Source of the DNA: an uncultured bacterium
GTDB lineage: Bacteria; Fidelibacterota; Fidelibacteria; Fidelibacterales; Fidelibacteraceae
Direction: 5' to 3'
Length of the DNA stretch: 64,000 bases
Assembly (NCBI GenBank): GCA_964395205.1
Contig: CAYNBL010000001.1
Location: 10,113-74,112 of the forward strand
Under the pieces are notes generated by a model. The model saw nothing but the letters and a program-made list of their open reading frames with translations. It searched no databases and was not told the origin of the DNA. The position numbers and the translations under genes were made by a program. This document shows positions 35,156 through 60,614 of the stretch, piece by piece; the first letter of the stretch is position 1, and the number at the start of each line of letters is the position of its first letter.

Positions 35156-35391
35156 TTTGGGGATAATTTTAATAATTCTCTCTTGTTTTGTGTTTTTTAG
35201 CAATTGGAGGTGAGTTTATCCACATTTCTCATTTGTTTATCCACTTTATAAGACTTTCATAATTCGCTTATAATAAAGCGTATTTAAAAACTATTCACGA
35301 AATTCACAGTATTAAGAATTTTACTATGTATTTTAAAGAAAAAGATATTAAATTAATAGACGTTAATGTTTATAAATGATTGAGGTGATAA
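35156..35391. other. Candidate oriC / DnaA-regulated dnaN leader (DnaA boxes plus AT-rich tract)
   Basis: A perfect TTATCCACA lies at 35216-35224 and TTATCCACT at 35237-35245. Weaker TTCAC-type boxes lie at 35291-35310. A very AT-rich stretch at 35310-35385 sits directly upstream of dnaN. Confidence 0.4.
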
Positions 35392-36504
35392 ATGAAATTT
35401 ACTGTTTCAAAAGAAAACTTTTTCAATGTTTTGCAAAAGGTATCTAACGTAACCCCGGTAAGATCTACTTTACCGATCCTATCTTGTATTCTTTTTACCG
35501 CAAAAGACAACACTCTTAAAATGCGTTCCACCGATCTTGAGATCACAATGGCGGCTTCATGTGATATTCAAATAGAAGAAGAAGGAGCTATTGCCATACC
35601 AAGTAAAATTATAAAAGAGATTACAAGCGAACTCCCCAACACACTTTTAAATTTTCATGTTGAAGATGAACAGATAATCATTACGACAGAATCCGGGGGC
35701 GAGTATAAGATCATGGGCCATCCTGCGATGGAATTTCCAACAGAACCCATTGTTGACGACAGTAAGATTATTACACTTCAGGCAGATAAGTTCAAACGTA
35801 TTGTAGAAAAAACAGGTTTTGCCGTAAGTCGAGACGAAATGAAAGTTGCCCTGAATGGTGTTTTGTTTCAATTTAACGAAAATGAATTAAGAGCTGTTTC
35901 TACTGATGGTCACCGGTTGGTAAAATATACACTAAAAGAATTTCAAGGCGCCGAAGATATAAAAGATATTATTGTTCCACCTAAATTTCTCAACCTGTGT
36001 GTAAGCAGTATTAAAGACGTTGAGTTCGTGACACTTCGTATTGGACACAACCATATTATGCTTGAGCTATTAAACACAACGATATATTCGCGAATTATTG
36101 AAGAACGTTTTCCTGATTATGAAAGCGTGATCCCAGCGGAAAACGACAAAAAAGTACTTGTAGATATTGATCAATTATTATCAGTTGTAAAACGTGTTGG
36201 TATATTTGCAAGTAAAAACACGCGACAAATATCACTTAGTTTTTCACACAACAGCGTATTAATAAAAGCAGAAGATATAGAAACAGCTTCAACAGCCAAA
36301 GAAGAGCTTGCGCTCGAATACAAAGGTGAAGATTTTGTTATTGGATACAACTCTGATTATTTACGAGAAATGATACGCCATATTGATGGTGAAAAAGTTG
36401 ATATCCATTTAAAAAACGCCTTGATGGCTGGCTTATTCTTCCCTGTAGAACAACAGGCAGATGAAGAGATACTTTTCCTCTTAATGCCCATCCGTCTTAT
36501 GTAA
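35392..36504 (+). CDS. dnaN: DNA polymerase III beta sliding clamp
   Basis: 370 aa. The N-terminus is MKFTVSKENFFNVLQKVSNV..RSTLPILSCILF, followed by ..AVSTDGHRL.. and the C-terminal ..LLMPIRL. Confidence 0.95.
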   Translation: MKFTVSKENFFNVLQKVSNVTPVRSTLPILSCILFTAKDNTLKMRSTDLEITMAASCDIQIEEEGAIAIPSKIIKEITSELPNTLLNFHVEDEQIIITTESGGEYKIMGHPAMEFPTEPIVDDSKIITLQADKFKRIVEKTGFAVSRDEMKVALNGVLFQFNENELRAVSTDGHRLVKYTLKEFQGAEDIKDIIVPPKFLNLCVSSIKDVEFVTLRIGHNHIMLELLNTTIYSRIIEERFPDYESVIPAENDKKVLVDIDQLLSVVKRVGIFASKNTRQISLSFSHNSVLIKAEDIETASTAKEELALEYKGEDFVIGYNSDYLREMIRHIDGEKVDIHLKNALMAGLFFPVEQQADEEILFLLMPIRLM

Positions 36505-53923: not shown

Positions 53924-54103
53924 GTTCTCTCCTGTTGTGTGCCGGATAAGTTAATAATTCAAGAGACAAGAAACAAGAAGCAAGAAACAAGATTAAAGCA
54001 AAAAGATAAAAGTATAGAAAAAGAAGCCATACTGTTGTTTGGGCAAGGGAAAAAAATAAATCTCATACAATGCAAAAATGATTAAAATTACCGGATAGAA
54101 AAT

Positions 54104-54127
54104 GAGAAGTCCCATATGGGACTTCTC
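54104..54127. terminator. Perfect 24-nt palindrome, probable minus-strand terminator of the decayed GIY-YIG unit
   Basis: GAGAAGTCCCATATGGGACTTCTC. ATTTTCTAT follows it on the minus strand. Confidence 0.4.
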
Positions 54128-54145
54128 AAGAGGGGGACGAAAACT

Positions 54146-54372
54146 TTATATTGAACCCTGCCGTATATTTGGCAAGGACAAGAATCTTAATTGCAGGAAA
54201 ATATTAAACGAAATTAAAGCCAATGTCAAACAAAAAAGATACTTATGTCGGATGAATAATTTAAGCAGAAGGAAAAAAGAGGGATAAGCAACACGGGCTT
54301 TTAAATCCTTTGTATGAACAAAATAATTAAAGTTATGATCAATACTTTTGAGAAAGAATACGTAGTACATAA
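54146..54372 (-). pseudogene. Decayed GIY-YIG (URI-domain) small nuclease gene
   Basis: The minus-strand translation MYYVFFLKSIDHNFNYFVHTKDLKARV matches the first roughly 27 residues of small GIY-YIG proteins (YYVYIL..S.....Y.G.T.DL..R). The remainder loses similarity, with no ..EHN.. or C-terminal helix motifs. Confidence 0.45.
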
Positions 54373-54661
54373 ATTCGCCCCCCCGACGATATGTTACGTA
54401 AAGCAAACCCTTAAATTGTGAGCTTGCTCTACGAAGCCCCGATACTTCGGGATCGGGATGAAGGATCTATTCATGATATGGCGTTCTGTAACATAAATAG
54501 ATCTTTCGACTACGCCCCGATTTTGATCGGAACTTCGCTCAAGATGACAGGCTTTCTTGCATTGAATTTTACTCTCGGATATTCTATTATCCATTGTTTT
54601 GAACACCCTTTTTCCCTAAATTCAACGATATATTAGAACCCTTCGACCAACGGGAGACAGA

Positions 54662-58284: not shown

Positions 58285-58402
58285 CGGTGATGTAAAGACG
58301 CGATTAATCGCGTCTTTACATATCGTATTTCCTTTGATTATATATAAAAAATATATATAATTCAGTCTTGAAAAAATGTAAACCAAATCAAAAGGAAACA
58401 TC

Positions 58403-58633
58403 ATGTTAGATAGAGCAAAAGTTCAAGAAATTTTAGATAAAGTACGTCCTTCATTGCAGATGGATGGCGGTGACTGTGAATTGGTCAATGTCCGTGAAGA
58501 TAATGTCGTTGAAGTTAGATTGACAGGCGCTTGCAATGGTTGCCCAATGTCAACCATGACATTAAAAGCCGGCATTGAACGCGTACTCAAAAACGAAATT
58601 CCCGAAATTGTGGAAGTCGTTTCTGTTCAATAA
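58403..58633 (+). CDS. NifU C-terminal-domain (Nfu-type) Fe-S cluster protein
   Basis: 76 aa with the motifs DGGDCELV and GACNGCPMS. Confidence 0.85.
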   Translation: MLDRAKVQEILDKVRPSLQMDGGDCELVNVREDNVVEVRLTGACNGCPMSTMTLKAGIERVLKNEIPEIVEVVSVQ

Positions 58634-59862
58634 TGTCTGATTTTTATAATCGTTTCGATACCGAAACTCTCGGGGCACGGCACGATGATCATTATCGTAC
58701 CGTGTTCCAAGTAGATCGCGACCGTGTACTCTATAGCGGCGCCTTTCGTCGTTTGCAGAACAAAACCCAGGTCTTTAAATCCGGAGCACACGATTTCTAC
58801 CGCACACGATTGACCCACTCATTAGAGGTCGCTCAGATCGGCCGCTCCATTGTTAACTTTCTTAATAAAACAGTTTTCAATAAAGCCGCGATCGATGTGG
58901 ATCTGGTTGAGGGCATTTGTTTGGCACACGATCTTGGGAATCCGCCTTACGGGCACCTGGGAGAGGCAATGCTAAATGATCTTATGAAGAAGGCGGGTGG
59001 TTTTGAGGGTAATGCTCAAACCTTACAGATCATCACCGAACAATTGCATGAAGATCCCGAAGGCGACGAGGGCATGAAGCCAAGTCGAGCATTTATTGAT
59101 GGTATTCTTAAATACAAAGTCCTGTGGTCCGATAGAAAAAAAGAAAGCAAATTCCTCTACGATAACCAATCCAAATATTTGGATTTTGTCAGCGATGGAA
59201 GCAATCATTATTCCGAACGAAGTCTGGAATGCCAGATCATGAATTGGGCCGACGATGTGGCTTATTCTTTGCATGATCTTTCGGACGGTTATCTTGCCGG
59301 GTTTGTGACACGCAAAGAGATAGAAAAATGGGCAGATGGTCACGAACTAAGTAAAGAAGAAGCGCACTACTTGGAAACAGTCATCAAAAAACTGGATCAT
59401 CGTGAAGATTTCGACCGATATCTGGCCTCACGTACCGGACGATTTATTGAAGGCGCAAAGATCGTTGAGCGCCAGCATTCTCTGGCTGCTAAAAGCAATC
59501 GTTATAAATATGCTATTGAGACAGAATCCGAGGTTGAAATAGAGAACAATCTATATAAGCGCCTGGCTGTTGATATTATTTTTCGATCACCTCAGTTGGA
59601 GCAATTGGAATTCAAGGGGCGTTATATTTTAAAGCGTCTTTTTGAAACTTTTCTCCAGGGTGGTCCTGGAAACTTTGATCTGAACGAAAAGATCCTTCCG
59701 AATGTTTTGAGAGAAAAGCTAAAACATATTGATAAGAATGATTATGTGGCTGTTGCCCGTATGGTGTGTGATCACTTTTCCGAGCAAACGGATATATCGC
59801 TACCCAAAATCTATAAGCGTCTGTTCGACCCCGATTATGGCAGTTTTTATGATATAGTATAG
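58633..59862 (+). CDS. dgt: dGTPase-family HD-domain triphosphohydrolase
   Basis: Contains the motifs FQVDRDRVLYSGAFRRLQNKTQVF, RTRLTHSLEVAQIGRS and AHDLGNPPYGH. The start overlaps the NifU-like stop (TAATG). Confidence 0.88.
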   Translation: MSDFYNRFDTETLGARHDDHYRTVFQVDRDRVLYSGAFRRLQNKTQVFKSGAHDFYRTRLTHSLEVAQIGRSIVNFLNKTVFNKAAIDVDLVEGICLAHDLGNPPYGHLGEAMLNDLMKKAGGFEGNAQTLQIITEQLHEDPEGDEGMKPSRAFIDGILKYKVLWSDRKKESKFLYDNQSKYLDFVSDGSNHYSERSLECQIMNWADDVAYSLHDLSDGYLAGFVTRKEIEKWADGHELSKEEAHYLETVIKKLDHREDFDRYLASRTGRFIEGAKIVERQHSLAAKSNRYKYAIETESEVEIENNLYKRLAVDIIFRSPQLEQLEFKGRYILKRLFETFLQGGPGNFDLNEKILPNVLREKLKHIDKNDYVAVARMVCDHFSEQTDISLPKIYKRLFDPDYGSFYDIV

Positions 59863-60559
59863 GACCTCACACAGAGGCACAAAATATCATAAGACAAAAA
59901 GAATATAATACCTCTCACAAAGGCACGAAATATCACAAAGCCACCAAGAAGAAATTCTAAGGTTTGGCACTAAGGGTAGTAAGACACAAAGAATACAATA
60001 TTAACCCTGAGCGAAGACGAAGGGTTGATTAATAATAGCCCGGGATGAAATCCCGGGTTAATAGTATTCAATATAAAAACAACCCCGAATGGAGTTAAGG
60101 GGGTGAACGGAAATTTAATTGTTTTGACCCCAGCGGGGTCAAAATATTAATAGCCCACGACGACGTCGTGGGTATAGGAATTATCAAATGAATACAACCA
60201 CAGCGTGGTTGAACATAACAATTATATTGAACTACGCTGTAGTTCATTTTTCCAAGAATGTATTTCTACGATATTGGACCCCTAACGGAGTCAAGATGTT
60301 CAACCCTTCCATCAGACTTCGCTCTCTGAGCTTCGCCCGACAAGTCCGTCAGGGTTGTAGTTGTTAGGGGATTTATGTCCCCGGGGTTTCACCCCGGGTT
60401 ATTGTTGTTTTACCCCTCCATACGTCGGGGTAAGGTAATAATATTTCAACGGTTCCTTAATTACTATTTTTTCTCTCCCCGGTGTATTATATCTCCCTGT
60501 GTAACAATATTCTTATCTTCATTGTGGCTCTGTGGCACTTGGCGCCTCCGTGTGAGGTC
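59863..60559. repeat. Non-coding island bounded by inverted repeats and carrying an array of about 11 GC-rich stem-loops (foldback/MITE-like element or large structured RNA)
   Basis: Terminal inverted repeat GACCTCACACAGAGGC (59863-59878) / GCCTCCGTGTGAGGTC (60544-60559), 15 of 16 complementary. A second inverted pair lies at 59934-59952 / 60516-60534. The left arm holds two direct copies of a roughly 46-nt unit. Hairpins lie at 60003-60433. The only ORF is a 64-aa artefact. Confidence 0.6.
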
Positions 60560-60614
60560 TTTTCCCTGAATTAATTTCTTGACATTGCCCCTATATTAAG
60601 GGAAATTTCATACT

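Follow-up and report, generated by a model that had tools for sequence, protein, structure and literature searches.

A composite palindromic intergenic element built from copies of a three-hairpin module in Marinimicrobia (Fidelibacterota)

The locus and its hairpins

We analysed a 64-kb stretch of contig CAYNBL010000001.1 (henceforth the window, meaning the whole of this stretch) from a Marinimicrobia/Fidelibacterota metagenome-assembled genome (MAG), in which a 752-bp spacer (59863-60614) houses an array of hairpins. The spacer lies between a dGTPase-like HD-domain gene (58633-59862, + strand), which closes a valS-phoH-nifU-dgt run, and the gene for the flavin adenine dinucleotide (FAD)-binding subunit of a xanthine-dehydrogenase-like operon (from 60615, + strand). 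The relatives of these flanking genes are all Marinimicrobia/Fidelibacterota, and the spacer is identical across the 4 assemblies of the species that span it. Within this spacer the array forms the core of a composite palindromic element of ~700 bp (59863-60561), whose hairpins, numbered hp1 to hp11, belong to copies of a module with three hairpins, A, B and C. The features of the spacer are as follows (handles such as L007 denote loci from other genomes):

59863-59995, + strand: left CACA-box arm, beginning just after the dGTPase stop codon (direct repeats D1 and D3; inverted repeats I1 and I5)
59997-60110, + strand: module M1, A-B-C (nhmmer E = 4e-24; covariance model 110 bits; orthologues in L007 and L025)
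60003-60026, + strand: hp1, hairpin A of M1, AACCCT-GAGCGAAGACGA-AGGGTT
60039-60057, + strand: hp2, hairpin B of M1, CCCGGGAT-GAA-ATCCCGGG
60080-60105, + strand: hp3, hairpin C of M1, CAACCCC-..-GGGGGTG, then AAC
60120-60216, + strand: module M2, a diverged tandem A-B-C copy (covariance model 55.9 bits, E = 2.6e-10, full length 1-113)
60122-60144, + strand: hp4, in M2, TTTTGACCCC-AGC-GGGGTCAAAA
60154-60172, + strand: hp5, in M2, CCCACGAC-GAC-GTCGTGGG
60195-60211, + strand: hp6, in M2, CAACCAC-AGC-GTGGTTG, then AAC
60217-60221, no strand: approximate centre of symmetry (midpoints of inverted repeats I2, I4 and I5 at 60211-60220; mirror alignment)
60222-60295, - strand: M2' remnant, a mirror copy of M2 with the B-type hairpin lost (inverted repeat I4 and mirror alignment)
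60228-60246, - strand: hp7, mirroring hp6
60277-60292, - strand: hp8, mirroring hp4
60296-60437, - strand: module M1', an inverted A-B-C copy (nhmmer E = 8.5e-21; covariance model 66.3 bits, E = 1.3e-12)
60301-60357, - strand: hp9, hairpin C of M1', with a 43-nt interior
60380-60398, - strand: hp10, hairpin B of M1', reading CCCGGGGT-GAA-ACCCCGGG on the minus strand
60410-60433, - strand: hp11, hairpin A of M1', reading TTACCCC-GACGTATGGA-GGGGTAA on the minus strand
60451-60561, - strand: right arm, a T-rich inverted CACA-box copy ending GTGTGAGGTC (inverted repeats I1 and I5)
60562-60614, + strand: element boundary and promoter-adjacent stretch AATTAATTTCTTGACATTGCC..GGGAAATTTCATACTATG, outside the palindrome and conserved in every relative examined

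An earlier note on this DNA had claimed eleven hairpins, and we recovered 11 out of 11 at the positions it gave. In a scan requiring perfect stems of 7 bp or more and loops of 3-12 nt, we found 7 distinct perfect hairpins in 60039-60433 (hp2, hp4, hp5, hp6, hp7, hp10 and hp11) compared with 59 in the entire window, while 1000 dinucleotide-preserving shuffles of 60003-60433 yielded 0.34±0.59 hairpins and never more than 4; perfect triloop hairpins were likewise concentrated, with 6 of the window's 14 sitting in the array. Among the remaining hairpins, hp1 has a perfect stem of 6 bp and hp9 is closed by CAACCCT/AGGGTTG, while hp3 (CAACCCC/GGGGGTG) and hp8 (GACCCC-TAAC-GGAGTC) each carry one mismatch in the window (A.G and C.A, respectively) and are perfect in both L007 and L025. 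We also confirmed the CAGCG apex described earlier in hp4 and hp6, with its complement in hp7. Folding of the whole intergenic region, compared with shuffles, gave z-scores of -9.0 on the + strand and -13.3 on the - strand. Given that both hairpin counts and folding exceed those of shuffled sequences, the cluster is real and non-random. Nor are these hairpins ordinary terminators of the kind found after most genes, an objection which the note had itself raised: no comparable module was found elsewhere in the window or in ~17 kb of extra flank of the same genome (~81 kb altogether).

No tRNA or transfer-messenger RNA genes were found in the window, Rfam 15 gave no gathering-level match there, and permissive Rfam searches returned only sub-threshold, chance-level matches in the array and in the related arrays of L006 and L013 (see below). 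Comparison of the array with plasmids and phages by BLAST found no match. A CRISPR array was rejected, as the earlier note had also argued, since Tandem Repeats Finder detected no tandem or direct repeats and the repeats are inverted with an irregular spacing of 30-60 bp. An integron attC array or cluster of attC sites lacking integron integrases (CALIN; sites of 57-141 bp with R''/L''-L'/R' boxes) was rejected because 10 of the 11 hairpins are only 17-26 nt long (the other, hp9, reaches 57 nt owing to an interior insertion) and there are no cassette open reading frames (ORFs); the only resemblance to attC is GTTGAAC (GTTRRRY-like) after the C hairpins. Coding was rejected because indels in L007 disrupt the short ORFs at 60188-60367, 60375-60569 and 60095-60247, and a replication origin because no DnaA boxes were found in the array.

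A mirrored three-hairpin module at two intergenic sites

By aligning eight copies, we defined a module of ~110 nt with the fixed order A-B-C. Hairpin A has the consensus (A/T)ACCCY-GA..GA-RGGGT(T/A) and is followed by a linker of ~11 nt ending in CAATA(A/G); hairpin B has the consensus CCCGGnnn-GAA-nnnCCGGG and is followed by an A-rich linker of ~22 nt; and hairpin C has the consensus CAACCCY-GA..GA-RGGGTTGAAC. RNAalifold applied to the module alignment recovered A, B and C independently, with compensated changes in 6 of 19 pairs. We then searched the 64 kb with nhmmer and, with filters off, with a covariance model trained on copies excluding M2 and M1', which together identified three complete copies in the window and no other significant match (the covariance-model match to M1' spans 60296-60432 on the - strand; the nhmmer match to M2 has E = 1.3e-4). 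These matches give the order of the array as M1 (hp1-3), M2 (hp4-6), the centre, the M2' remnant (hp7 and hp8) and M1' (hp9-11). The M2' remnant (60222-60295) is 87.5% identical to positions 598-685 of L006.

When the left half was aligned with the reverse complement of the right half, the score was 120, compared with 30±8 and a maximum of 65.5 for shuffles, meaning that 59863-60561 forms one degenerate palindrome centred near 60219. Its mirror pairs are hp1/hp11, hp2/hp10, hp3/hp9, hp4/hp8 and hp6/hp7, with hp5 left partnerless. The claim that the stems are unrelated thus fails, as the hairpins fall into three families which recur in a fixed order. The premise that structure is conserved while sequence is not fails with it: the hairpins are paralogous copies of one module in a mirror-image layout, and within families the loops and outer stems are conserved in sequence, with only some of the inner pairs covarying. 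Likewise, the shared CAGCG apex is the result of common descent rather than convergence, given that hp4 and hp6 sit in the diverged M2 and hp7 in M2', its mirror counterpart.

The outer parts of the palindrome are formed by the CACA-box arms. The left arm is A-rich (47% A), comprises sub-repeats of ~45 bp (CTCACA(C/A)AGAGGCAC...), and was found in all relatives at the dGTPase-FAD locus. In relatives, the right arm always lies 5' of the FAD-subunit gene or its promoter region, also in those with another gene upstream. The two are linked by inverted repeats I1 (46 nt, 74% complementary) and I5 (21 nt, 86%). Arms of this kind (CCTCACACAAAGGCACGAAG... and, inverted, ...CTTTGTG..GTGTGAGGTC) bracket the spacer where dGTPase-FAD synteny is kept (L022, L018, L011, L010 and L027), and are also listed for L029, L033 and L034. 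The copy number of the CACA box is variable, with about four left copies in L007 (5231-5800), and an inverted repeat of similar CA-rich/TG-rich make-up is also present in an unrelated viral contig of high GC content (L042, 10996-11090). A Rho-loading (rut) site in the CACA arm was rejected, as the arm is rich in A and contains C and G in roughly equal amounts.

Beyond the right arm, immediately 5' of the FAD-subunit start codon, lies the strongly conserved stretch 60562-60614, which reads AATTAATTTCTTGACATTGCC-(short variable dyad)-GGGAAATTTCATACTATG. The ATG of the FAD subunit lies only ~30 nt downstream of TTGACA, and this stretch may be a promoter or operator, or may belong to a leaderless or short-leader mRNA. 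An invertible promoter (inverton) flanked by GACCTCACAC/GTGTGAGGTC was provisionally rejected, given that the orientation is the same in all assemblies and the conserved TTGACA region lies outside the repeats.

To place the module in its relatives, we searched ~204 kb of related loci, all centred on the same gene cluster, with the covariance model. Copies were confined to two spacers, 1.6 kb apart in that cluster, both of which lie between co-directional genes (dGTPase to FAD subunit, and phoH to nifU). The dGTPase-FAD spacer carries the module in the window lineage, in L007/L026 and in L025. The phoH-nifU spacer, at which arrays were initially revealed by a hairpin-cluster scan of the related loci (L006 and L013), carries it in five Marinimicrobia contigs: three copies in L006, an inverted pair of 262 bp with perfect terminal inverted repeats (21/21) in L013, a decaying inverted pair in L011, two decaying tandem copies (both on the + strand) in L008, and only a module fragment in L027. 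Modules are arranged head-to-head in the window, L013, L011 and L006. The module thus constitutes a repeat family, whose copies, some intact and others decaying, occupy two intergenic sites among the related genomes and mostly form head-to-head inverted pairs.

These copies also vary in presence and in state. The phoH-nifU spacer of the window (58285-58402) is only 118 bp long and has no module (it contains a terminator-like hairpin with a 14-bp stem at 58290-58321), yet in L006, whose nifU-dgt region is 98.7% identical to that of the window, an array of ~870 bp stands in its place, so module presence varies even among close relatives. Within the dGTPase-FAD array, L025 retains all of hp1-hp9, including M2, which shows that hp4-6 are ancestral, whereas L007 lost hp4-6 through a 107-bp deletion between two GTTGAAC repeats. 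That the copies of L008 and L011 are mismatched and decaying is in keeping with turnover within a repeat family.

The spacer after the dGTPase gene is additionally an integration hotspot for other mobile DNA. The 3' end of the dGTPase gene is duplicated in L008 (2397-4283) and L027 (2150-2260), and in L008 the duplication brackets inserted genes which, judging by their translations, resemble an AbiEii/AbiEi toxin-antitoxin pair. L009 (5230-8712) has genes whose translations resemble a Fic-domain protein and an insertion sequence (IS) transposase, and L025 (470-2400) has three unrelated ORFs in the spacer. Contigs L003, L006, L013 and L016 terminate at or inside the spacer or at the end of the dGTPase gene, which fits repeats breaking assemblies; the repeat is one probable cause of MAG fragmentation here.

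Maintenance of pairing and the reach of hairpin A

We assessed whether base pairing is maintained by counting paired and compensated cells within the hairpin families. In the B family (8 copies), 98.4% of cells are paired and 7 cells carry double changes, compared with 2.0±1.0 in shuffles (0 of 500 reached 7), with three inner pairs covarying (GAT/ATC, GGT/ACC, CAT/ATG and TAC/GTA). In the combined A/C super-family (21 copies), 95.2% of cells are paired and 21 carry double changes, compared with 6.8±3.0, and again no shuffle out of 500 reached the observed value of 21. The compensated changes in both families and in the RNAalifold alignment thus bear out the suggestion that pairing is under maintenance. 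Between the closely related orthologues, stems and spacers differ at similar rates and no compensated pair was found; covariation is visible among paralogues and more distant lineages, not among close orthologues. The loops are also conserved by family (GAA; GAGCnnnnTCGA; GACGTATGGA; GACCWTKTGGA), and loops of the A/C type start and end with GA, which would permit tandem G.A pairs followed by another covarying pair. Among non-canonical cells read in the "sense" orientation, six are G.T or T.G and none is A.C, although some decaying copies do hold A.C; this bias hints weakly at recognition as a single strand.

The array is 95.8% identical to that of L007 and 89.9% identical to that of L025, while the flanking genes differ at 32-39% of their four-fold degenerate positions between the same lineages. 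The adjacent left CACA-box arm shows 59-82% identity between lineages, and the arms evolve roughly neutrally. The phoH-nifU spacer of the window, for its part, is 95.8% identical to that of L007 while four-fold sites differ by about 35%; compared with synonymous positions, the intergenic sequence of this clade appears to be conserved to an unusual degree.

Hairpin A reaches beyond this gene cluster. Its core as found in L013 occurs as follows:

L013, 3108-3128 and 3339-3359; viral loci L132-L251: the 19-mer CCCYGAGCTTGTCGARGGG

Among the matches listed, this 19-mer is present in more than 120 unrelated IMG/VR contigs with GC contents of 34-72%. In the listed viral matches the Y/R closing pair covaries (T-A in 127, C-G in 8 and a mismatched C.A in 1), the 5' flank is often CCGTTCG, and roughly one in five occurrences has an inverted partner within 70 nt. 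The complete A-B-C module does not occur in the listed viral contigs, and scanning viral contigs for the C, A2 and B hairpins gave either nothing or only chance or coding matches. No Rfam family covers the CCCYGAGCTTGTCGARGGG hairpin, and searches of the literature collection consulted, with the sequence and with spurious-peptide strings, returned only primers or nothing. Hairpin A therefore seems to belong to a very widespread and apparently uncatalogued family of short hairpins.

Two further features lie elsewhere in the window. Three DnaA-box-like 9-mers (TTATCCACA, 0-1 mismatch) occur at 35158-35245, in a 236-bp gap 5' of a 370-aa ORF (35392-36504), and this cluster may mark a DnaA-regulated promoter or an origin-proximal region. 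A long spacer between divergent genes (53924-54661) has other simple repeats (CAAGAAACAAGA-type) and GC-rich hairpins (CCCGAT-ACTTCGGG-ATCGGG, ...CTTCGCTCAAGATGACAGG) that are unrelated to the A-B-C module.

Interpretation and comparison with known repeats

We infer that the array is a non-coding palindromic repeat which resembles repetitive extragenic palindromic (REP) sequences, the bacterial interspersed mosaic elements (BIMEs) that they compose and REP doublets forming hairpins (REPINs). The explanation that we favour as a whole, at somewhat better than even confidence, is that of a REP/BIME/REPIN-like element copied in inverted and tandem fashion and serving at an operon boundary. The module would have been duplicated by inverted and tandem copying, and may have been mobilised as single-stranded hairpins by a protein acting in trans, while selection, template-switch (quasi-palindrome) correction or a combination of the two would preserve its perfect stems. 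Template switching is known to create and repair perfect inverted repeats (PMC5941160, PMC8794818). In place, the element would most likely act as an operon-boundary structure, on the transcript or on the DNA, combining a terminator or insulator with a block to 3' exonucleases that protects the upstream mRNA. This putative terminator/stabiliser role is suggested by the position of the array, by the precedent of REPs, which typically lie between co-directional genes (PMC3733652), and by an excess of inward-facing terminator-like hairpins. Of the options listed in the earlier note, REP/BIME-like arrays come closest. That reading, the non-random clustering and the maintenance of pairing stand, while the unrelatedness of the stems does not, and the statement that no described class has this organisation was too strong, given that BIMEs and REPIN doublets (inverted REP clusters with specific linkers) are organised similarly.

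Several observations weigh against this explanation, and membership of the REP/BIME/REPIN class is not established. REP palindromes carry an unpaired GTAG or CGTC tag at one end (PMC3733652), and no consistent tag of this kind was found in the flanks of any of the 29 catalogued copies; the conserved flanks are instead CAATA(A/G) before B and GAAC after C. A Pfam scan of 16 window ORFs turned up no Y1/REP-associated tyrosine transposase (RAYT). The apparent copy number is low (one array in ~81 kb), and all known copies sit at the two spacers of a single gene cluster. REPs and REPINs usually number tens to hundreds per genome. No target-site duplication flanks the element in the window, L013, L011 or L006, and no clean empty site could be defined. 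High conservation is also not unique to the array, as the comparable phoH-nifU spacer (58285-58402) is likewise 95.8% identical between the window and L007, and the conservation, which includes the spacers between hairpins, would fit a locus-specific functional RNA or DNA element as well.

Indeed, the main rival is a locus-specific, cis-acting structured RNA, either a long 3' untranslated region (UTR) belonging to the nifU-dGTPase transcript or the 5' leader of the xanthine-dehydrogenase-like operon, with protein-bound hairpins or a regulatory fold. Strong constraint in stems, loops and spacers (90-96% identity, compared with about 63-65% at four-fold sites), covarying stems with conserved loops, the occurrence of G.T/T.G but never A.C among "sense" non-Watson-Crick cells, the folding z-scores (-9 and -13) and the location of both sites between co-directional genes, and hence probable transcription, all speak for it. 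We nevertheless consider it unlikely, because modules stand in both orientations within each array, so that any one transcript would contain half of the modules in antisense form, with loops that differ. Strand preference, judged by the energy of each hairpin, changes from the + strand in the left half to the - strand for hp8 and hp9, no Rfam family matches, presence varies between close relatives at both sites with some copies decayed, and the interiors of hp3 and hp9 are freely replaced. Improbable in our judgement is a neutral origin, in which repeated template-switch and fold-back (inverted-duplication) errors in an AT-rich spacer left functionless nested palindromes. It would account for one giant nested palindrome, for most loops being of the minimal 3 nt, for the partnerless hp5, whose 5' arm resembles a local reverse-complement copy of its 3' arm, and for indels bounded by short repeats (such as the 107-bp deletion of L007 between GTTGAAC copies), and template switching is known both to create and to perfect inverted repeats (PMC5941160, PMC8794818). 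It does not readily explain, however, why the array evolves 6-7x slower than four-fold sites and also slower than the CACA arms, why an ordered A-B-C module with conserved loops recurs at a second locus in lineages only 72-75% identical at the DNA level, or why unrelated genomes share a conserved hairpin-A core.

The mirrored layout also brings to mind a foldback-type miniature inverted-repeat transposable element (MITE) derived from a DDE transposon and mobilised in trans, with A, B and C as the transposase-binding sites of each end (cf. Mu and Tn7). The arrangement A-B-C ... C'-B'-A' with A at the outer termini, the perfect 21/21 terminal inverted repeats of L013, the mirrored hp1/hp11 and CACA arms of the window, the variable presence at two sites and a spacer that also receives other mobile DNA are all consistent with such an element. 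We hold it to be distinctly improbable, given that no copy shows a visible target-site duplication, ~280 kb of related loci revealed no transposase gene and the copy number is low; moreover, the sites are hairpins with covarying stems, which suggests single-stranded recognition rather than duplex binding. Finally, the cluster could in principle be a chance pile-up of ordinary intrinsic terminators between two operons, as six terminator-like hairpins (1.2 expected) face inward from both sides. The terminator-like hairpins of this genome are instead single, with stems of 11-14 bp and T-runs (13340, 24129, 44868, 54103 and 58290), the hairpins of the array lack proper U-tracts and have only moderately T-rich tails, and they fall into three sequence families whose fixed order recurs at another locus. 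This module homology effectively refutes such a pile-up, which we regard as very improbable indeed.

A further proposal, which we offer only tentatively and think rather unlikely, is that the A-B-C hairpins are recognition sites of an undescribed hairpin-targeting system (e.g., one using a single-strand-specific protein, of the HUH type or another). Its minimal target would be the 19-nt CCCY-GAGCTTGTCGA-RGGG, with a 4-bp stem, tandem G.A pairs and a short apical helix, a hairpin that very different bacterial and viral genomes (34-72% GC) have in common. The Marinimicrobia arrays would then be one lineage-specific elaboration of a very widespread palindromic element, so far uncatalogued. The link to the widespread 19-nt hairpin suggests a much larger uncatalogued family, whose recognition machinery could be sought directly.

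If the REP/BIME/REPIN-like classification is true, repeats of this type extend to the Fidelibacterota (Marinimicrobia), an abundant uncultured marine phylum, from which, to our knowledge, they have not been described before. The architecture is in any case unusual, in that three hairpins, with covarying stems and conserved loops, follow each other in a set order within a module that is mirrored about a centre.

Among known systems, template-switch inverted repeats (PMC5941160, PMC8794818) share the perfect stems, minimal loops and multi-base compensated changes between copies, and hp5 is explicable as a local reverse-complement copy of this kind; they represent a mutational mechanism, however, which gives no account of an ordered A-B-C module recurring at a second locus. 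Pneumococcal BOX A-B-C elements, enterobacterial repetitive intergenic consensus (ERIC) sequences and Correia elements resemble the array in their ordered sub-units, in internal modules of variable copy number, in complementary ends giving a long stem-loop and in their intergenic, transcribed location, and ERIC copies are likewise conserved at orthologous loci. Their sequences are unrelated to ours, though, and in our element every sub-unit is a hairpin with covarying stems, no target-site duplication is seen, and dispersal in the sequence sampled is very limited. The REPIN-RAYT system (PMC3116915; bioRxiv 10.1101/2021.07.10.451892) differs in that REPINs are ~100 bp long, whereas here the arms alone are three-hairpin units of ~110 nt and the pair spans 260-440 bp (262 in L013 and ~440 for the window core), and in the absence of a RAYT among the 16 ORFs scanned. 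As in REPINs, however, two inverted palindromic units flanking a variable spacer make up a larger hairpin, orthologous sites keep their copies, whose conservation exceeds the neutral expectation, and inheritance is vertical, with diversification inside the lineage and decay of singleton remnants. From the REPs and BIMEs of Escherichia coli and other Proteobacteria (PMC3733652), the array is set apart by the missing GTAG/CGTC tag, by three hairpin types per module as opposed to one or two REP types, by its occurrence as one array in ~81 kb and by its host, an uncultured phylum of the Fibrobacterota-Chlorobiota-Bacteroidota (FCB) group. With them it shares short GC-rich palindromic units (here ~17-26 nt, 20-40 bp in REPs), several unit types set in a fixed mosaic with characteristic linkers, neighbours in opposite orientation, a number of units that varies between strains, an extragenic position downstream of coding regions and between co-directional genes, and the capacity to fold either locally or as a single large stem-loop.

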